Source: Chitinophaga pinensis (GTDB lineage Bacteria; Bacteroidota; Ignavibacteria; Kapaibacteriales; Kapaibacteriaceae). Taken from it: DNA of 64,000 nucleotides. The notes under the pieces were generated by a model. That model saw nothing but the letters and a program-made list of their open reading frames with translations. It was not told the origin of the DNA and did no database searches. Where the stretch lies: assembly GCA_943372295.1 (NCBI GenBank), contig CALRYC010000005.1:64310-128309 (forward strand), read 5' to 3'. The translations under genes were made by a program, and so were the position numbers. Below, piece after piece: positions 52,254-61,870 of the stretch (the first letter of the stretch is position 1; every line of letters starts with the position of its first letter).

Positions 52254-53573
52254 ATGATCGTTGCAAAGTTCGGTGGCACATCGGTAGTTGATGCGGCAGC
52301 GCTGCGTCAGGTAGACAACGTCGTGAGTTCAATGGTGGATGAACCCGGCGGCGTAATTGTGGTGCTTTCGGCAACTGCCGGTACAACATCAAAACTGCTC
52401 GACATTGCGCGTAGAGCTGGCACGGGTGAGCCGTTCGAGACGGACCTGTCTGAGCTGCTTCAACGTCACGAAGCGATCGCCTCCGAGTTAACAGGCAATG
52501 CCGCATGTGTGGCCGACCTCGCTTCGGCATGCCGCGAGTTTGCCCACGCCGTAGCTGAGCTCGGAGAGTGGAATGATGCTACACTCGATGCGTTCTGTGC
52601 CTTCGGAGAGCTCCTGAGTACGACGATCTACCATTCTTATAGGCGCTCATGCGGACTGCAAAGCAGATTCATCGATGCCCGAAGACTCATCGCCACTGAT
52701 GACCGGTATCAGAATGCGATTGTCAATGATGAAGCTACACTGTCTCGGTGTCAGGCCGAACTTGTCAGTACTTGTTCAACCGGCTGCGTCATCGTGACCC
52801 AGGGCTTTATTGCGTCCAGCGAAGCAGGCATGACCACGACACTTGGGCGCGGCGGCTCAGATTATTCGGCCGCGATCATCGGTGCCTGCATGGCCGCACG
52901 TCAGATTAGAATCTACACGGATGTCAGCGGTGTTTTTACTTGCGATCCGCGCCTGGTGCCCGACGCCATACCGTTGCGGTCGATCGGATTTGATGAGATG
53001 CGTGACATGGCCTCGTATGGGGCTAAGGTACTCCATCCCGATACACTTCTTCCTGCCGTACGCGCCTCGATCCCGGTGTTCGTTCTCAACACCGTCCGTC
53101 CAGATGACCACGGAACCTGCATCTCCGATCAGGCCATCATGCACACAGAGGCGCGCGGGGTATCCCTGCTACATAACGTGCTGAGTCTGACCGTCCGACG
53201 CGGCGTCGGCATGATGATCGCGCAGAATGAAGTGATCGCATCCAGCGTAGTTCTGACGATCGCAACACAGGACACGATGACCCTCTGGGTGCGCATGAAC
53301 ACAGCCAAGGCAGGGACTGTGTTTGACGCGATCGCGCACTCACACGACGTTCTTTTTGATCCATGCAGCATCGTGGCAGTTACCGGCCAGCACATGACTC
53401 ATCCGAAAACGGTTGAAGTTGTCAGCCGCCACATCGCCGCTATCACCGATACGGCGCGAATCTGCGTTGTCTCGGACACCTGCGTGATCGGGATCGTACA
53501 GCAAGATGACGCACATGCATGTGTGCGCAGCCTTCACGAAATGGTTATTCGTCGACCAGGCCGAGACGGATAG
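52254..53573 (+). CDS. lysC: Aspartate kinase
   Basis: 439 aa. MIVAKFGGTSV, TTLGRGGSDYSAA, YGAKVLHP motifs, C-terminal ACT-like region. Confidence 0.9.
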   Translation: MIVAKFGGTSVVDAAALRQVDNVVSSMVDEPGGVIVVLSATAGTTSKLLDIARRAGTGEPFETDLSELLQRHEAIASELTGNAACVADLASACREFAHAVAELGEWNDATLDAFCAFGELLSTTIYHSYRRSCGLQSRFIDARRLIATDDRYQNAIVNDEATLSRCQAELVSTCSTGCVIVTQGFIASSEAGMTTTLGRGGSDYSAAIIGACMAARQIRIYTDVSGVFTCDPRLVPDAIPLRSIGFDEMRDMASYGAKVLHPDTLLPAVRASIPVFVLNTVRPDDHGTCISDQAIMHTEARGVSLLHNVLSLTVRRGVGMMIAQNEVIASSVVLTIATQDTMTLWVRMNTAKAGTVFDAIAHSHDVLFDPCSIVAVTGQHMTHPKTVEVVSRHIAAITDTARICVVSDTCVIGIVQQDDAHACVRSLHEMVIRRPGRDG

Positions 53574-54177
53574 CCTCGCGAACAGCTCCGATGTGACGAA
53601 GGAAGAGAACGAACGATACGCCTGTGACCGCAATGCGGAACTCCGTCACGTCGGGACAATCCACAAACATCGTCGCCCGCAGAGTGCTATTGGGCAAACT
53701 CCAAGCCAGAACCGCCGTAGCGATGATGCCGGACATAGAAGCTATATGTACCTGACGACGGATCACGTAGTTGCCGGTCAGGTAGCCGAGTATCCAGAAT
53801 ACGAGTGGCAGCGGATTCATCGCCGTAAGGCATCCCGTTGCCGTCGCAAGCCCCCTGCCTCCATCGAAACCCAGGAAAATGGAGTAATTGTGTCCAAGAA
53901 CTACACCAACCGCAGCCCAGGCCGTGGCTGCGAAGTACGGGCCATGAAACTGCTGTGCAAGAAGAACGACGATCGCTCCCTTGGCCATATCTGCGAGCAT
54001 TACGCCGATACCGGCGGCCTTACTCTGACTCACGTCATACAGATTACGGGCACCAACGTTACCCGTTCCCTCCGTTCGAATGTCCGTACCGGCAGTCAGG
54101 CGACGTACTATCCACGCGGTTGGAATAGAGCCGATGACGTATGCCACGGCGGCAATTGCGATTAACCCCAGATTCAT
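53545..54177 (-). CDS. plsY: Glycerol-3-phosphate acyltransferase PlsY
   Basis: 210 aa. YVIGSIPTAWIV, GTGNVGARN, GHNYSIFLGFDGGRGLAT. Its 3' end overlaps the lysC 3' end by 29 nt (convergent). Confidence 0.9.
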   Translation of the reverse strand: MNLGLIAIAAVAYVIGSIPTAWIVRRLTAGTDIRTEGTGNVGARNLYDVSQSKAAGIGVMLADMAKGAIVVLLAQQFHGPYFAATAWAAVGVVLGHNYSIFLGFDGGRGLATATGCLTAMNPLPLVFWILGYLTGNYVIRRQVHIASMSGIIATAVLAWSLPNSTLRATMFVDCPDVTEFRIAVTGVSFVLFLRHIGAVREAIRLGLVDE

Positions 54178-55052
54178 GCTCTCCCCTTGAGAATGCGAAG
54201 TTGAATGAGTGAAATGGCCATCAGGATCAAGAAGATAAGGTACGCGACGGCACTGGCATACCCCATCGAGTCGGATTGTTCAAATGCCTGGTGATACACC
54301 TCGTAGACAAGAGTCGAGGTCGCTCCGAGAGGTCCACCCTTGGTCATGATGTACACCTCCACGAAGATCTGAAAGCTTTTGATGCTGTTGACAACAATAA
54401 CGAACAGTAATGTTGGACGCAGCATCGGTAACGTTATCCGACGAAACTGCTGCCACCGTGATGCGCCAACCAGTTCGGCTGATTCGTAAATGTCGGCCGG
54501 AATAGACTCCATCCCTGCTAGAAACAGAACCATGTAGTAACCGGCAGAGATCCACACGTCCATTGCCATGATCGCCGGCAGAGCCGTACCCGGATGAAGA
54601 AGCCAGCCATCGACAGGATATCCGACGCCCATCATGGAACAGATGACGTTGACGTATCCATCGCGGGCGTAGAGGTTCGTGAAGACCAGCGCGATCACCA
54701 CCAATGAGGTGACCGACGGAAGGAAGAATGCTGCCCGAAAGAATGAGGCAAGCCGAGGAGTGCTCTGTCGCACCGCCACAGCCAGCGCAATGGCAAGCGC
54801 TGTTGTGACTGGAACTGTCCCGAAGGTGAAGGTCGCGGTATTCAGCAGAGCATTCCAGAAATCCTTGTCCTCGAATGCCTGTCGGTAGTTCTCCAATCCG
54901 ATGAAGGTCATCCTGTTGGTCAGCGTTTCGTAGTCACTCAGGCTTAGTAGCAGCGCGTACGCCAGCGGATAAAGCCAGAAGATGGCAAACGTCGCCAGCC
55001 ACGGGGCGAGAAGCGTCCACGTGTAGACCGTCTGCTTACGCACCGTGCGCAT
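54174..55052 (-). CDS. Carbohydrate (CUT1-type) ABC transporter permease, no partner genes nearby
   Basis: 292 aa from ATG 55052 (MRTVRKQTVYTWTLLAPWLATFAIFWLYPL...). EAA-loop ESAELVGASRWQQFRRITLPMLRP. The track start at 55226 overlaps maf extensively. Confidence 0.85.
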   Translation of the reverse strand: MRTVRKQTVYTWTLLAPWLATFAIFWLYPLAYALLLSLSDYETLTNRMTFIGLENYRQAFEDKDFWNALLNTATFTFGTVPVTTALAIALAVAVRQSTPRLASFFRAAFFLPSVTSLVVIALVFTNLYARDGYVNVICSMMGVGYPVDGWLLHPGTALPAIMAMDVWISAGYYMVLFLAGMESIPADIYESAELVGASRWQQFRRITLPMLRPTLLFVIVVNSIKSFQIFVEVYIMTKGGPLGATSTLVYEVYHQAFEQSDSMGYASAVAYLIFLILMAISLIQLRILKGRA

Positions 55053-55659
55053 CCTCGACAAGCGCGCGCAGCTCGGTGTACAAGAGCTCAAGCGGAAGAC
55101 CGACGATCGTGTAGTAACATCCTTCAACACGCGATACGAAAACGGCACCAAAATCATCCTGGATACCATACGCCCCTGCTTTATCAAGGGGCGACCCTGA
55201 GGCCACATAGGCATTGATCTCCGCATCGGAGAGCTCGCGGAACGTTACATCTGTTGCCCTGGATGCCCCGCGCCGACCTAGCCCTCTTCCTCTTCCGACG
55301 AGGGCAATTCCGGTATGAACGGTATGTGTGCGACCACTGAGACGCCTGAGCATTTCGGCTGCCTCGGCCGCGTCGGCAGGTTTGTTCAGCACCGCATCGT
55401 CAAGAACCACTGTTGTATCGGAACCGATGACGATCACATCCCCATCAACCATTTCGCTGCCACGAACGGCCTTACGCAAGGCAAGCTCTCTGACGTACTC
55501 GTCAGGCGGCAAGGTCGTTGAGACAGCATCCTCGTCGATACTCGGGACGACGCTGCTGAAGCTGAATCCGACATGCCGCATCAGAGACTGGCGCCGAGGA
55601 GACTGGGAAGCGAGGACCAGCGCCACCGGCAGGTGCAGAAGGTCATTCAGGATGATCAT
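55036..55659 (-). CDS. maf: Maf-like nucleoside triphosphate pyrophosphatase
   Basis: 207 aa. LVLASQSPRRQSLM, VIGSDTTVVLD, DKAGAYGIQD. Confidence 0.9.
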   Translation of the reverse strand: MIILNDLLHLPVALVLASQSPRRQSLMRHVGFSFSSVVPSIDEDAVSTTLPPDEYVRELALRKAVRGSEMVDGDVIVIGSDTTVVLDDAVLNKPADAAEAAEMLRRLSGRTHTVHTGIALVGRGRGLGRRGASRATDVTFRELSDAEINAYVASGSPLDKAGAYGIQDDFGAVFVSRVEGCYYTIVGLPLELLYTELRALVEDAHGA

Positions 55660-55707
55660 TGTGCCGCGAACTTACCGACCCACGGTCGATATCCCGAAGG
55701 TTAAATC

Positions 55708-56241
55708 TTACTTATCCAGCGCAGATTCGATCGCCGAGATCACTTCGTTTGAAGACGGATCGACCCGACTGCCAAAGCGAGCTACAAGCGAGCCGTCCTT
55801 GCCGAGGAGAAACTTCTCAAAGTTCCAGTCGATCTCTCCGGCCAACGAAGGGTTTCCACCACCGGACGTAAGGTATTCAAACAGTGGAGCTTTTGCCGAT
55901 CCCTTGACAACGACCTTACTGAACATCGGGAACGTCACGTCGTACTTCGATGTGCAGAAGGTCTTGATCTCCTCGTCGGTGCCAGGCTCTTGTGCACCAA
56001 AGTCATTCGCCGGAAATCCGAGTATGACCAGCCCCTTATCCTTGTACGTCCGGTAGAGCTTTTCCAGAGGGGCATACTGCTTGGCATGACCACAGAATGA
56101 TGCGACATTGACGACGAGGACAACCTTGCCTTTGTAGCCAGAAAGGTCAACCGTCGTCCCGTCGATCGACCGGACCGAGAAGTCGTGCAGAGATGTGGTC
56201 ATGATGGTAAGCAGTGTCAGTGTGAGAATGAATGTGTTCAT
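55708..56241 (-). CDS. gpx: Glutathione peroxidase (Cys-type)
   Basis: 177 aa. VVLVVNVASFCGHAKQY, LGFPANDFGAQEPG, WNFEKFLLGKDG. Hydrophobic N-terminus. Confidence 0.9.
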   Translation of the reverse strand: MNTFILTLTLLTIMTTSLHDFSVRSIDGTTVDLSGYKGKVVLVVNVASFCGHAKQYAPLEKLYRTYKDKGLVILGFPANDFGAQEPGTDEEIKTFCTSKYDVTFPMFSKVVVKGSAKAPLFEYLTSGGGNPSLAGEIDWNFEKFLLGKDGSLVARFGSRVDPSSNEVISAIESALDK

Positions 56242-56828
56242 GAGATGATCCCGTTGTCAGACCCTTTGAAAACAGCAAACACCACCGGAGGATTCCCGCT
56301 TTGATTCACAAACTGCAGCCGTAGGCAGTTGAATCTATCCTGGGCGAGCTCGACTAAGTAGCTTTCCACCGACTCACGTTCGGCCCGTCCCTCGGGATGT
56401 GAGTAGCAGACCACCGTCAGCAGCCCACCGGGCATGAGAAGTTCAAGAGCCTGTTGTATAGCGGCCATCGTTGTGGAGACCTTCGTTGTGAGCTCTTTCT
56501 CTCCACCCGGCAGATAGCCCAGATTAAACGTCACCGCCCTTATCGCCCCTTGATGAGGGGGCTCAATGTGGTCGCGCATTGTCTCGTGTCCGGCCAGCAG
56601 CAGTCGGACATTTCCAACGCCGTTACCAAGCCGCACGCGTGCCACATCAAGTGCAACCTGCTGAATGTCAAATCCATAGACGAGTCCTTCTTCACCGACA
56701 CAGTTAGCAAGGATCTGTGTGTCCCACCCATTGCCGACCGTGGCATCGATCACCACATCTCCAGCGCTCACCTGACTGCGAAGCAGACGGTGCACTGCGG
56801 TAACGGCATTCTCTGAGTATGGCTTCAT
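56238..56828 (-). CDS. mnmM: YtqB/MnmM-family SAM-dependent methyltransferase (putative tRNA nm5s2U34 methyltransferase)
   Basis: 196 aa from ATG 56828. VIDATVGNGWDT, VYGFDIQ, FNLGYLPGG align by eye with B. subtilis YtqB (VVDATCGNGNDT, VYGFDIQ, FNLGYLPKG). Confidence 0.75.
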   Translation of the reverse strand: MKPYSENAVTAVHRLLRSQVSAGDVVIDATVGNGWDTQILANCVGEEGLVYGFDIQQVALDVARVRLGNGVGNVRLLLAGHETMRDHIEPPHQGAIRAVTFNLGYLPGGEKELTTKVSTTMAAIQQALELLMPGGLLTVVCYSHPEGRAERESVESYLVELAQDRFNCLRLQFVNQSGNPPVVFAVFKGSDNGIIS

Positions 56829-57805
56829 CGGAACCACCTTTCGATGTTGATCTCTGGATCGGGGGTAGCCCCGTCCAAAACACAGGCAACTAGCTGCGAA
56901 GCAGCAAATGGACCCTGCAGCGCCCCCTTGGTGCCAAGACCATTGAGCGTGTATCGTCCCTGCAGCATAGGATGCCGTCCTACTAAAGGTCTTTTGAACT
57001 GTGTCGATGGTCTTATCGCGGCACGGTGACCTTCAACAACGATTTCGTGATCGATCATGTGTCGAACTGCTCCAAGAAGCTGCATACGCGCTTCAGGCGT
57101 AGGAGCGGGGTCGTGATCATCCCAGTCGTGTGTCGCGCCGATACGATACCGGTCATTGCCCATTGGTAGGATCCATGTTCCATTTGTCAGGATGTGATCG
57201 ATGTCCAGGCCTTTGATACATACATCAAGGATCTCCCCTTTGGACGGCTCAATGGGAAGCCACGACCAGTTCGGATCGGTCACGGCTCGATAGCCCGTGC
57301 AGTCGATAACGGCCGACGCACTGTCGCTGTTGGCAGTCCAGTCAACAACGGATCGCATCAACTTAATCAGTTGCGGGATGTCGATCGTGACAACATTCCC
57401 GTGCTGCATCCCTCCATGAGGGTAGCGCACGCCATCGACTTGTCCGGGTGAGATCGCGGTAACAGCGTAGGGGGTAAGTTCACCTGAGTGTATACGCCGA
57501 TGGAACCACTCCTGCATGGAGGTATCACGAAACACCCGACGAAGCGTCCAATCGTGCTGCAGCTGCGTGCTGAAATGCCGTTCGATCTCCGAATACGTTG
57601 CCCGTGCCTGTTCCAAAAGCTGCTCGCCACGCCAGGTGGGTTTTAGGCGCTGACCAGTAATGGGCGTGATCATGCCGGCTGCAACCAGCGACGATGTATC
57701 GGCCGATGTGTCATCCCAGGCACTAACGCGTACGCCACGCCGGATGAACTCCCACGCTGCGAGCGAACCTGCAAGCCCCATTCCGACAATATGAACAGAG
57801 CTCAT
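56825..57805 (-). CDS. FAD-dependent oxidoreductase (DAO family), candidate MnmC(o)-like enzyme
   Basis: 326 aa. N-terminal dinucleotide fold VHIVGMGLAGSLAAWEF. C-terminal LNGLGTKGALQGPFAA. ATGA overlaps on both sides. Confidence 0.7.
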   Translation of the reverse strand: MSSVHIVGMGLAGSLAAWEFIRRGVRVSAWDDTSADTSSLVAAGMITPITGQRLKPTWRGEQLLEQARATYSEIERHFSTQLQHDWTLRRVFRDTSMQEWFHRRIHSGELTPYAVTAISPGQVDGVRYPHGGMQHGNVVTIDIPQLIKLMRSVVDWTANSDSASAVIDCTGYRAVTDPNWSWLPIEPSKGEILDVCIKGLDIDHILTNGTWILPMGNDRYRIGATHDWDDHDPAPTPEARMQLLGAVRHMIDHEIVVEGHRAAIRPSTQFKRPLVGRHPMLQGRYTLNGLGTKGALQGPFAASQLVACVLDGATPDPEINIERWFR

Positions 57806-58530
57806 AGCTCGCGTCCGGTCAGCCCACGAATGACAACGCTCGCACAGGCCGCACCGAAAGCCGCGGGCAGGTAGGGGGCTGTCCCGAATGCCGACCTCTT
57901 GAAGTTTGTCCCGTCGGTGTACATCAGGGACTCATCATCTGTCTCTTCGAGCGAGTACACGGCAGTGATACCCGTTCGTATGCCGACGCGGTGCAGACGC
58001 TTTCTCACGAACCGCGCGAGAGGACATTTCTGGGAGTCTGCTATGTCAGCAATGCGGATCATTGAGGGGTCGACCTTCCCACCTGCTCCCATGGAGCTGA
58101 CTATGCGGAAGCCACGTCGATGGGCCTCCTGGAGCAGGGCGACCTTTGGTGCGAGGGAGTCGATGGCATCTACGATGAAGTCATACGACGCTGAAAGCAG
58201 TCGATCGACTCGGGCAGGGGTAACGAACTCCTGCATTGGGACGACGGCCAGCTCCGGGTTGATGTCACGCAGCCGTGAGCGCATGACCTCGATCTTGAGT
58301 TGTCCTTCGGTGGACGTCAGCGCCGGTAGCTGCCGATTGCGATTCGACGGGTCTACGACATCGCCATCGACGATCGTCATACGCCCCACACCGGCACGGG
58401 CGATAAACTCCGCAGCGTACGAGCCGACGCCACCGAGTCCGACAACCAGTACGTGTGAACGCGTGAATCGGTCAACGGCCTCGTCGCCCAGAAGAAGTCG
58501 AGTGCGGGATGTCCATCCCGCACCGGTCAT
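57802..58530 (-). CDS. tcdA: tRNA threonylcarbamoyladenosine dehydratase (ThiF/E1-like, TcdA/CsdL)
   Basis: 242 aa from ATG 58530. RTRLLLGDEAVDRFTRSHVLVVGLGGVGSYAAEFIARAGVGRMTIVDGDVVDPSNRNRQ. The track start at 58572 overlaps tatD by 46 nt. Confidence 0.85.
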   Translation of the reverse strand: MTGAGWTSRTRLLLGDEAVDRFTRSHVLVVGLGGVGSYAAEFIARAGVGRMTIVDGDVVDPSNRNRQLPALTSTEGQLKIEVMRSRLRDINPELAVVPMQEFVTPARVDRLLSASYDFIVDAIDSLAPKVALLQEAHRRGFRIVSSMGAGGKVDPSMIRIADIADSQKCPLARFVRKRLHRVGIRTGITAVYSLEETDDESLMYTDGTNFKRSAFGTAPYLPAAFGAACASVVIRGLTGREL

Positions 58531-59183
58531 CGCTTGAAGACGGTTTCGAAAGTCTGCTGCTGGATCGCGCATAGCTCCTCGATGCTTACGCCCCGGATGG
58601 TGGCAGCGGCAGCATAGACATCGGAAATAGGTGTCTGGTCTGTGTCGGTCTCAATTAGGAATCTCTCGGGCGGACACAGACGCAGGGCCTCATGCAGGGC
58701 CGAGGAATCTCGGCATACGGAGGGACCGAACGAAAGGACCATGCCGGCATCCAGACATTGCCGGGCAAGTTCAGCCCCCTTGACAAAACCATGCAGTATC
58801 CATGGTTGCGAGGGATTGATAAATTTGTTTACACGCAACAGCTCATCGTGCGCTTTCACACAGTGTACCACAAGGGGTAGTGAAACGCGCTCTGCCATGT
58901 CGGCGATGAATTCGAATGCATCGATCTGATGACCCCAGGGGGCTGAGCACGACCGGTCGAGTCCACACTCCCCGATGCCCACAACGAGCGGCTCCTGCGT
59001 TAGTTCTTCCAAGATCTCTGCGACATCTCTCCAATTAGCGGTCACGTCCCACGGATGCAGGCCGACAGTACAGATTCCATCCGTTTCGAAGACCTCGGTG
59101 TCGGCATTGATACGTATGCTGACGACGGACATGACATCCGGGTCTGACGCTCGATGGTGCGCGTGGGCGTCAATGTATTTCAT
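58527..59183 (-). CDS. tatD: TatD-family metal-dependent hydrolase (short form)
   Basis: 218 aa from ATG 59183. MKYIDAHAHH, GIGECGLD, LPLVVHCVKA, ETD. Confidence 0.8.
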   Translation of the reverse strand: MKYIDAHAHHRASDPDVMSVVSIRINADTEVFETDGICTVGLHPWDVTANWRDVAEILEELTQEPLVVGIGECGLDRSCSAPWGHQIDAFEFIADMAERVSLPLVVHCVKAHDELLRVNKFINPSQPWILHGFVKGAELARQCLDAGMVLSFGPSVCRDSSALHEALRLCPPERFLIETDTDQTPISDVYAAAATIRGVSIEELCAIQQQTFETVFKR

Positions 59184-59275
59184 CACTGAAGAGCAGGGCG
59201 ACCGCTGAAGCGGAATCAAAAATCACAATGGTGGGAGAAGTCGGCCGGTAAATCTAGAAAACAGAAATCACTTCC

Positions 59276-59686
59276 TCAAAGGTCCGGTGCATCGGTGTCG
59301 GAAACACCGCGCTTTGATGCGTCTCTGGCTGCCATAGCAAGGGCTTCGTAACGAACTCGTAATCCGTCGAGGGTTTTTTCTTCCATCTGTTCAATGTCCA
59401 GCATGACGTTGTGTGCTCCCTTCGTTACCCGTATGAGTTCGTCGAGCTTCAGATGTATGGCCTCGGTATCGCGGTTCTGCGTGTTCTGGATCAGGAACAC
59501 CATGAGAAAGGTGACAATCGTCGTGGCGGTGTTGATCACAAGTTGCCATGTGTCACTGAAGCCGAAGATCGGTCCGGATACAAGCCAGACGGTGATCGTC
59601 AGCAAGGCAATTGTGAACGTTATCGGCCTGCCGGCAACTCGAGCGACGGACTTGGCAACGGCACTGTAAACACTGCTTTGACTCAT
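59276..59686 (-). CDS. Low-affinity iron permease family (PF04120-like) membrane protein
   Basis: 136 aa. FGFSDTWQLVINTATTIVTFLMVFLIQNTQNRDTEAIHLKLDELI matches the family signature as recalled. Confidence 0.75.
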   Translation of the reverse strand: MSQSSVYSAVAKSVARVAGRPITFTIALLTITVWLVSGPIFGFSDTWQLVINTATTIVTFLMVFLIQNTQNRDTEAIHLKLDELIRVTKGAHNVMLDIEQMEEKTLDGLRVRYEALAMAARDASKRGVSDTDAPDL

Positions 59687-60099
59687 TTGGTGGACCTATG
59701 TTTTCGGGGAATAGCCAGCCAGGAAGCGACCGGTATCAACACGATCGCACCGACCATCAGCCATATCGGATGGGGAAACTGGAAGAAGTTCATGACCGTA
59801 GCTGCAAGAATAAAGCCCCCTACCAATAGAGTCGTCACGCGCTCTGCTCCCTTGGCAATGCGGATAGCAACCATTGAGCCGATATATGCCCCCGCGCACC
59901 AAGCCACGAGCAGACTCGCAAGAGCTCCGAAGTTGAGACCTTCCGCATAGGCCTGCACGGCCAAAGGGTCATTGGAACTCGGCATCGCCGCGCTGCCCAT
60001 GAACAACGAATGGCCAAGCATCTCGATGGCGGCAACCACAAGTCCGCTGGCGATCATGCCAGCTAGAACCGCAAGCGTTCTGCGCAGAATGTGATTCAT
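59683..60099 (-). CDS. Hypothetical small integral membrane protein (about 4 TM)
   Basis: 138 aa from ATG 60099 (MNHILRRTLAVLAGMIASGLVVAAIEML...). AGGAGA lies 9 nt upstream. ATGA overlap with the iron permease gene. The track ORF start (60330) runs through the groEL terminator and into groEL. Confidence 0.55.
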   Translation of the reverse strand: MNHILRRTLAVLAGMIASGLVVAAIEMLGHSLFMGSAAMPSSNDPLAVQAYAEGLNFGALASLLVAWCAGAYIGSMVAIRIAKGAERVTTLLVGGFILAATVMNFFQFPHPIWLMVGAIVLIPVASWLAIPRKHRSTK

Positions 60100-60147
60100 T
60101 ATCGAGTTCTCCTGTGAATAGTAGCGCATGATAACACCCGAAATGCA

Positions 60148-60179
60148 AACGCCCGACCCCAAGAATGGGGTCGGGCGTT
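60148..60179 (-). terminator. Intrinsic terminator after groEL
   Basis: AACGCCCGACCCC-loop(6)-GGGGTCGGGCGTT, a 13-bp perfect stem 33 nt past the groEL stop, followed on the minus strand by TGCATTTCGGG. Confidence 0.55.
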
Positions 60180-60211
60180 GCTGATACTTTGGGAGACAAC
60201 CGATCGCAAGA

Positions 60212-61870
<1,659 letters not shown>

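Follow-up and report, generated by a model that had tools for sequence, protein, structure and literature searches.

A stand-alone DAO-fold oxidoreductase gene overlapping mnmM in a Kapabacteria genome, a candidate unfused equivalent of MnmC

A 64,000-nt stretch of a Kapabacteria genome (phylum Bacteroidota; contig CALRYC010000005.1), here called the window, carries a gene for a stand-alone flavin adenine dinucleotide (FAD) oxidoreductase of the DAO fold (56825-57805, 326 aa, Pfam DAO 79.5 bits). This gene runs directly into a gene for MnmM (YtqB-type), a predicted S-adenosylmethionine (SAM)-dependent methyltransferase of 5-aminomethyl-(2-thio)uridine, nm5(s2)U, at tRNA position 34 (56238-56828, 196 aa, NCBIfam NF053511). 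Coordinates are those of the window unless another locus is named, and all window genes described are on the minus strand. The two open reading frames (ORFs) lie in different frames and share the four nucleotides ATGA at 56825-56828, read directly from the sequence, as the stop of the first and the start of the second. From sequence comparison and gene context, the flavoprotein and MnmM are very likely the two halves of an unfused MnmC-equivalent, and would together finish 5-methylaminomethyl-(2-thio)uridine, mnm5(s2)U. A preliminary description of the locus had proposed a linked pair for the route from 5-carboxymethylaminomethyl-(2-thio)uridine, cmnm5(s2)U, through nm5(s2)U to mnm5(s2)U; recurrent adjacency, gene fusions and missing alternatives make this the most likely reading.

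MnmM and its pairing with the oxidoreductase

The identification of the 196-aa protein as MnmM is firm on profile and residue matches. The score against the NF053511 equivalog model is 195.1 bits, above the cut-off of 135, and the match covers profile positions 2-182 of 183. The protein also falls in the Pfam "rRNA_methylase" family, which contains MnmM, and its best PDB match is BsMnmM (8h0s, 142 bits). Mutation of K11, D34, N101, Y104, K110, Y141 or H144 abolishes the activity of BsMnmM, and an alignment to PDB 8H0S shows that six of these seven residues are kept. D34, N101, Y104 and K110 align with D36, N102, Y105 and K111 of the window protein, and Y141 and H144 align with the Tyr and His of its CY-SHPEG stretch. 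K11 falls outside the alignment, and the window protein has His13/Arg14 there. The motifs DATVGNGWDT, VYGFDIQ and FNLGYLP, from which MnmM had been recognised in the preliminary description, are present in the translation. Another possible start of mnmM is the GTG at 56837.

The DAO-mnmM pairing is real and widespread. Relatives of the window oxidoreductase, called the DAO family in what follows, were collected with the family alignment (A1) in a scan of one genome per GTDB species; at least 578 relatives were confirmed and 80 loci were kept. In 23 of the 80 loci a co-oriented MnmM gene is the immediate neighbour; it follows the DAO-family gene in 22 and precedes it in one. In one zetaproteobacterial locus of the 23 (L040) the two are fused into a single 551-aa ORF. 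The MnmM-adjacent loci come from Ignavibacteria/Kapabacteria, Planctomycetota, Verrucomicrobiota, Methylococcales and other Gammaproteobacteria, Zetaproteobacteria and Omnitrophota, so that the adjacency, conservation of which had been listed as a check, recurs across several phyla as well as in fused form. A search of the full library with the DAO-family profile finds 3,185 representatives (clusters at 50% identity) at E <= 1e-30, and DAO-MnmM fusions (P0221, P0266 and P0294, 365-399 bits) are among the best 150 of these 3,185 matches.

A different methyltransferase is found next to the same oxidase family in two genera of one Bacteroidota family. Here the DAO-family gene is immediately preceded by a gene for a stand-alone MnmC2 (L149 1504-3200 in genome G185 and L174 1153-2911 in genome G257), with a 2-nt gap in one pair and an 8-nt overlap in the other, and the two MnmC2 proteins score 201 and 206 bits against NF033855 (cut-off 136). 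The order of these unfused genes, MnmC2 and then oxidase, is the domain order of Escherichia coli MnmC. That one oxidase family, as judged from sequence, adjoins two unrelated isofunctional methyltransferases is the strongest single argument for its proposed role.

The rest of the host genome was surveyed for the enzymes of the pathway. The assembly has 2.47 Mb and is 99% complete, and the closest public homologues carry the names Kapabacteria or Ignavibacteria. MnmG (762 bits, with an intact ORF) and MnmE (356 bits) are both above cut-off, a MnmA homologue is present (E 2e-55), and tRNAs with the anticodons UUC, UUG, UUU, UCU, UAA and UCC are found. Across the host genome there are zero matches to PF05430 (MnmC2), and no match above cut-off to TIGR03197 (canonical MnmC1) or to TIGR01212 (MnmL/YhcC-type radical-SAM proteins). 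The genome is thus as had been anticipated, with mnmE and mnmG and without a canonical mnmC above cut-off. There are two other DAO paralogues in the host, a TIGR03364-family protein and an aminophosphonate-oxidoreductase-like protein, and the window DAO protein is the top scorer among the host DAO paralogues on the MnmC1 model. Because MnmE, MnmG and MnmA are present and canonical MnmC1, MnmC2 and MnmL are not found above cut-off, the window DAO protein is the only visible candidate in the host genome for the cmnm5 to nm5 step that would feed MnmM. A haem-copper oxidase subunit I homologue is also encoded, in agreement with an oxidase that depends on O2 and with the lack of MnmL.

Forty-seven genomes that have a DAO-family gene without an adjacent MnmM were tested for the other components. 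MnmC2 is found in 37, MnmM elsewhere in the genome in 3, and neither in 7, which are metagenome-assembled genomes. Canonical MnmC1 above cut-off is found in none of the 47, and the best match to the MnmC1 model is often the DAO-family gene itself. In 3 of the 47 a true ThiO is present as a gene separate from the DAO-family gene. Among the 37, MnmC2 is stand-alone in Bacteroidota; it is fused to queuine tRNA-ribosyltransferase (TGT) in one translated ORF, of five long ones, from Opitutae. This last locus (L111 2341-4371) has a 676-aa TGT-MnmC2 fusion together with a stand-alone DAO-family gene, and the fusion type is already in the list of Jaroch et al. (bioRxiv 10.1101/2023.12.21.572861).

A phylum sample of 251 evenly drawn genomes, each at least 90% complete, has the DAO family in 103 and MnmC2 in 98. 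Both are present in 79, the DAO family only in 24, MnmC2 only in 19 and neither in 129 (odds ratio 22, p 2e-25, kinship ignored); when the sample is collapsed to genera the corresponding counts are 38, 14, 12 and 60 (odds ratio 13.6, p 2e-10, kinship again ignored). Of the 24 genomes with the DAO family only, 11 are members of the window's own order. Each of the six genomes from the window's own taxonomic family has MnmM adjacent to the DAO-family gene, and in G151, the only other member of the order with a locus, no adjacent MnmM is found. Within the window's order, 11 of 12 genomes carry the DAO family, and none of the 19 listed genomes from other orders of the same class does. This distribution suggests that the order acquired the family or that the rest of the class lost it.

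Fold, phylogeny and competing readings of the oxidoreductase

The DAO protein is unfused, i.e., a stand-alone ORF of 326 aa with no C-terminal MnmC2 fusion. Its Pfam DAO match and a TM-score of 0.77 to MnmC agree with the fold class given in the preliminary description, that of the MnmC oxidase. A match to a curated family, which was to be checked, did not follow, as the protein misses both the cut-off of the MnmC_Cterm (MnmC1) model TIGR03197 (65.5 bits, cut-off 174.2) and that of the ThiO model TIGR02352 (73.8 bits, cut-off 250.8). Other DAO-family members score 58-92 bits on the MnmC1 model, also below cut-off, and the fused proteins L040, P0221, P0266 and P0294 belong to the same family and have the same sub-threshold ThiO and MnmC1 scores. 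In a PDB profile search glycine oxidases come first, at 88 bits versus 54 bits for MnmC. The AlphaFold model (pLDDT 93.4) has its best fold matches in glycine oxidase, the iminodiacetate oxidase IdaA, CmiS2 and MnmC, and glycine oxidase leads, with TM-scores of 0.82 for ThiO and the above 0.77 for MnmC. These two scores are too close, and the fold comparison was dropped as a discriminator between ThiO and MnmC1. Glycine oxidase, IdaA, CmiS2 and MnmC oxidise glycine or N-carboxymethyl amines, and by analogy this would be the chemistry needed for the conversion of cmnm5 to nm5.

Conserved positions were compared among the three groups. Arg265, in the sequence AIRPS, is invariant in the DAO family and aligns with the Arg of the GLRP motif of ThiO, which we take to be Arg302, presumably the residue that binds the substrate carboxylate. 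A motif G-x-G-[ST]-[KR]-G is common to the DAO family and MnmC1, and ThiO has GH[YF]RNG at this place. Thr and Trp stand in the place of His244 and Tyr246 of ThiO. The DAO family also displays two motifs of its own, SSxVAAGxIxPxTG and GLGTKG.

A tree of 65 sequences was computed with IQ-TREE from DAO-family members, MnmC1 domains, ThiO and ThiO-like proteins and the host genome's own paralogues. Two rows, L124 and L127, in which a neighbouring gene had been picked, were left out. The MnmC1 references are from E. coli and other Gammaproteobacteria and were taken from a class-level genome search; a homologue search with E. coli MnmC lists 120 matches, all at least 71% identical and mostly full-length bifunctional MnmC, and these were too alike to serve as varied references. 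The DAO family is monophyletic with support of 100/100, and the fused zetaproteobacterial ORF L040 is nested inside it. In the best tree the DAO family and canonical MnmC1 are split from ThiO with support of 98/90, and a sister relation of the family to MnmC1 is favoured but not settled. Clustering with ThiO had been named in the preliminary description as an outcome that would speak against the pair. In the best tree the family sits with MnmC1 rather than with ThiO; however, the test is not diagnostic, since MnmC1 is itself a glycine-oxidase-like enzyme. E. coli MnmC has no significant activity on free glycine or sarcosine.

Several observations weigh against a role of the DAO protein in the modification of U34. 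The approximately unbiased (AU) test keeps a tree in which the DAO family is joined to ThiO (delta lnL, the log-likelihood difference, 8.7; p 0.19). The protein is below the MnmC1 cut-off and scores slightly higher on the ThiO model (73.8 vs 65.5 bits), and the fold cannot separate ThiO from MnmC1. The DAO protein is not basic, with an isoelectric point (pI) of 6.4, and the family median of 7.5 lies between ThiO (6.3) and the MnmC1 domains (9.1). The co-occurrence statistics ignore phylogeny and carry no correction for it. In addition, 19 genomes of the phylum sample have MnmC2 and no DAO-family gene, and 13 complete-looking Bacteroidota genomes outside the window's order have a DAO-family gene and no MnmC2 (G108, G111, G116, G121, G126, G141, G165, G169, G205, G245, G265, G346 and G357). 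Loci are available for 9 of these 13 genomes, and none of the 9 has MnmM within 1.5 kb of the DAO-family gene.

Some of these points would favour a flavoprotein that is a small-molecule amine oxidase without a tRNA role, i.e., a glycine oxidase/ThiO, a sarcosine oxidase or an N-carboxymethyl-amine oxidase, which stands next to mnmM by tight gene packing. The lead of ThiO over MnmC1 in the model scores, of glycine oxidases in the PDB profile search and of glycine oxidase in the fold matches are all as expected from such an enzyme, as are the ThiO sistership kept by the AU test and the pI of 6.4; in addition, ATGA overlaps are a frequent arrangement in the host genome (about 15% of its same-strand junctions). 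Such an enzyme is nevertheless very unlikely here, given that MnmM adjacency recurs in at least six distant lineages and in fusions, that a further lineage pairs the family with MnmC2, which is non-homologous to MnmM and isofunctional with it, that the family and MnmC2 co-occur strongly, and that the best tree groups the family with MnmC1. As for ThiO itself, the host genome lacks the thiazole/thiamin pathway: tblastn of the host genome with E. coli ThiC, ThiE, ThiG, ThiH and ThiS gave nothing at E <= 1e-3, the sole ThiF match is the window's TcdA-like gene described below, and it seems that the organism cannot synthesise thiamin de novo. The identity with ThiO was rejected on this ground, together with the coexistence of a true, separate ThiO gene with the family in three genomes and the separate clades in the tree.

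A flavoprotein that does work on U34 with MnmM or MnmC2 could also perform some other step, e.g., on a different xm5U side chain, or in salvage or proofreading. In its favour, the family stands apart as a clade, has motifs of its own and stays below the MnmC1 cut-off, and the 13 family-positive genomes without MnmC2 would be accommodated as well. We consider this very improbable: MnmM and MnmC2 both take nm5(s2)U as substrate, the conversion of the MnmEG product to nm5(s2)U is exactly the step missing in the host genome, and the arginine aligned with that of the ThiO GLRP motif is invariant in the family. The evidence points instead to the unfused MnmC-equivalent.

Proposed route and relation to known systems

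The wobble modification mnm5s2U tunes the decoding of Glu, Gln and Lys codons. To our knowledge, removal of the carboxymethyl group has been assigned to an enzyme only in Pseudomonadota (MnmC1) and in Bacillota and anaerobes (MnmL). In the route proposed for the window's host, MnmE and MnmG would install cmnm5 on U34 of tRNA-Glu(UUC), tRNA-Gln(UUG), tRNA-Lys(UUU) and related tRNAs, and MnmA would add the 2-thio group, as the presence of their genes suggests. From its fold, the conserved arginine and analogy, the FAD-bound DAO enzyme is predicted to oxidise the N-substituted glycine carried by the tRNA at its C-N bond. The imine formed would be hydrolysed to nm5(s2)U with release of glyoxylate, and O2 would re-oxidise the reduced flavin with formation of H2O2, as in MnmC1 and glycine oxidase; the substrate and the reaction are inferred from fold, gene context and phyletic pattern, and the O2 dependence by analogy with MnmC1. 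MnmM, which is assigned above the curated cut-off and keeps its catalytic residues, would then use SAM to convert nm5(s2)U into mnm5(s2)U. The ATGA overlap may couple the translation of the two genes and stand in for the fusion of Planctomycetota, Opitutae and Zetaproteobacteria, possibly with a role in balancing expression. Of the neighbouring genes, TcdA may bring a loose tRNA-anticodon theme, and a glutathione peroxidase (Gpx) could clear the peroxide by-product.

The idea of an oxidase plus MnmM route is not new. Cho et al. (2023), who identified MnmM, expected that an MnmC(o)-like enzyme still to be found would exist in organisms with the orphan methyltransferase. Jaroch et al. (bioRxiv 10.1101/2023.12.21.572861) found the Bacillus/Streptococcus partner to be the radical-SAM protein MnmL (YtqA), encoded beside mnmM. 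The same authors list 27 MnmC1-YtqB fusions from Planctomycetota, Opitutae/Verrucomicrobiota and Zetaproteobacteria (their Data S4a), and state that the MnmC1+MnmM route from cmnm5s2U to mnm5s2U predicted from them "awaits experimental validation". The earlier statement that the partner oxidoreductase of MnmM is "encoded elsewhere" is contradicted by this work, as the B. subtilis partner lies next to mnmM. A literature search found no paper that links YurR to tRNA, and YurR was dropped as a known MnmM partner, MnmL being the one named in the literature.

The MnmC1-YtqB fusions are the closest parallel: they join the same two families, with the oxidase N-terminal and MnmM C-terminal, as the oxidase is upstream and MnmM downstream in the window. 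In the window, unlike in the fusions, the two genes are separate and overlap by 4 nt, and the host belongs to Kapabacteria. In B. subtilis, too, mnmM adjoins the gene for the enzyme that provides nm5s2U, in the MnmL (YtqA)-MnmM operon, but that partner is a radical-SAM protein that tends to occur in anaerobes, whereas the window's is an FAD oxidase, presumably O2-dependent, in a host without MnmL. E. coli MnmC (MnmC2-MnmC1; PDB 3AWI, 3PS9) shares with the window oxidase the DAO-fold FAD domain, the sister clade in the best tree, the G-x-G-[ST]-[KR]-G motif and the Arg of the xxRP motif, and the proposed chemistry followed by SAM-dependent methylation would be the same. It differs in that the window protein has only about 17% identity to it, misses the TIGR03197 cut-off, is unfused and is about 70-80 residues shorter than the MnmC1 domain, and in that the methyltransferase partner in the window, MnmM, is unrelated to MnmC2. 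The best profile and fold matches of the window protein are ThiO (B. subtilis, PDB 1NG3/1RYI) and its relatives IdaA (6PXS) and CmiS2 (6J38). ThiO has the conserved RP-motif arginine and an xGRHP motif in common with it and, as predicted for the window protein, oxidises a glycine C-N bond; unlike ThiO, the window protein is below the TIGR02352 cut-off, falls in a separate clade and belongs to a host without a thiazole pathway.

A further comparison is with organisms that have MnmC2 alone (the Aquifex aeolicus type), for which an "ammonium route" is considered. Many Bacteroidota have an MnmC2 of about 220-240 aa and no recognised MnmC1. Unlike the A. aeolicus type, however, 79 of the 98 MnmC2-positive Bacteroidota genomes of the phylum sample also carry the DAO family. 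With this co-occurrence and the adjacency in two genera, Bacteroidota that look as if they had MnmC2 only may not depend on the ammonium route. A 2026 preprint notes that direct in vivo evidence for this route is lacking, reports that MnmC1 is strictly O2 dependent and that MnmL substitutes for it anaerobically, and finds 59% of 1,322 genomes, mostly of aerobes, to be without MnmC1 and MnmL. The DAO family is a candidate to fill part of the gap left by such genomes.

What is new here, in silico, is that the oxidase of the DAO-MnmM pairs and fusions appears to be a distinct large family, missed by the curated MnmC1 model, and that this family seems also to pair with MnmC2 and to be common in aerobic Bacteroidota. 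It is fairly probable that the DAO family as a whole (about 3,000 clusters at 50% identity) is an unannotated, stand-alone sister of MnmC1 that serves as the principal aerobic enzyme for demodification of cmnm5(s2)U in Bacteroidota, Planctomycetota, Verrucomicrobiota, Methylococcales and Zetaproteobacteria and pairs interchangeably with MnmM or MnmC2. If so, many genomes now listed as "MnmC2 only" or "neither MnmC nor MnmL", and so far explained by the MnmEG ammonium route, would have a glycine-route pathway, and censuses based on K15461, COG4121 or TIGR03197 would miss the family. The window itself is a compact two-gene version and amounts to a sound functional annotation, not a new system.

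Gene order and the flanking genes

Six co-directional minus-strand ORFs span 55036-59219 in the ORF list. The first gene of the chain encodes a TatD-family metal-dependent hydrolase (58527-59183, 218 aa from the ATG; another possible start is the TTG at 59219), with 129.7 bits to Pfam TatD_DNase and with all NCBIfam TatD models below their cut-offs. Next is a ThiF-fold protein of 242 aa (57802-58530; another possible start is the ATG at 58572), a predicted TcdA-like dehydratase of tRNA N6-threonylcarbamoyladenosine 37 (t6A37). It matches Pfam ThiF, and its best NCBIfam match is TcdA (NF011696) at 166.8 bits, below the cut-off of 304; the best PDB matches are TcdA 4d7a/4yed at 155 bits versus 71 bits for MoeB. 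The protein is therefore best called TcdA-like, as far as these profiles go: the position of the gene directly upstream of the DAO gene and TcdA as the best family stand as first described, but the score stays under the curated cut-off. After DAO and MnmM follow a glutathione-peroxidase-family protein, Gpx (55708-56241, 177 aa, Pfam GSHPx 135.8 bits), and a Maf-family nucleotide pyrophosphatase (55036-55659; Pfam Maf 205 bits, TIGR00172 168 bits with a cut-off of 117). The maf gene starts 48 nt past the gpx stop, so the spacing given in the preliminary description matches the ORF coordinates.

The four ATGA junctions noted in the preliminary description are all present when the sequence is read directly. 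In addition to the DAO/MnmM junction they are at 58527-58530 (TatD stop, TcdA start), 57802-57805 (TcdA stop, DAO start) and 56238-56241 (MnmM stop, Gpx start). The last holds if Met1 is the true start of Gpx. There is a second in-frame ATG at 56202 (Met14), and if translation starts there a 36-nt spacer follows MnmM and the fourth ATGA is no longer a start. Genome-wide, 326 ATGA junctions are found between ORFs of at least 100 aa in the 2.47-Mb genome, and exactly one chain of four, that of the window. With this type of overlap in about 15% of same-strand neighbour pairs, about 0.6 chains of four junctions are expected by chance per genome by our own arithmetic. Thus the four-ATGA chain is the longest in the genome and is no statistical outlier. 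A sigma-70 promoter scan of 53000-60500 found no promoter-like site, Bacteroidota-type promoters being outside the model of the scan, and a terminator scan of the same region found three terminator-like sites, all weak and less numerous than in shuffled sequence.

The linkage of TatD, TcdA, Gpx and Maf to the pair is lineage-specific and variable. Among the genomes examined, the full TatD-TcdA-DAO-MnmM-Gpx(-Maf) block occurs in the window's order only, and outside this order the DAO family has quite different, unrelated neighbours. Even in two close relatives (L146 in G199 and L156 in G319) the block lacks the TcdA-like gene, so that TatD is the gene immediately before DAO, and in L010, L012 and L013 Maf is about 2 kb further downstream. 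For these reasons the "anticodon-loop modification operon" into which the pair had been placed at first is treated as unproven, and the case for it is weak. Lineage-specific compaction alone, which is compatible with the DAO-MnmM pair as an unfused MnmC-equivalent, has a slightly better than even chance of accounting for the four extra genes; the co-directional string that continues beyond maf is also in line with it. On the other side, TcdA is likewise a tRNA anticodon-loop enzyme, Gpx follows MnmM in every examined member of the order, and a peroxidase beside an H2O2-producing oxidase would make chemical sense, by inference.

Beyond maf the string of co-directional genes continues, likewise with overlaps, with a gene for a lone sugar-ABC permease and with plsY (53545-55226), and tight gene packing is general in this region.

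The Gpx gene shows some variation of its own. In the more distant relatives L010-L014, 20-140 nt lie between the MnmM and Gpx matches. The N-terminus of the window's Gpx has a 13-residue hydrophobic extension, MNTFILTLTLLTI (56202-56241), which is restricted to the genus and missing in more distant relatives. The extension could be a signal or anchor sequence, or Met14 could be the true start. A Gpx next to an H2O2-forming oxidase is chemically attractive, though the amounts of peroxide would be tiny, and this is speculation; equally speculatively, the hydrophobic extension may place the Gpx of this genus outside the cytoplasm.

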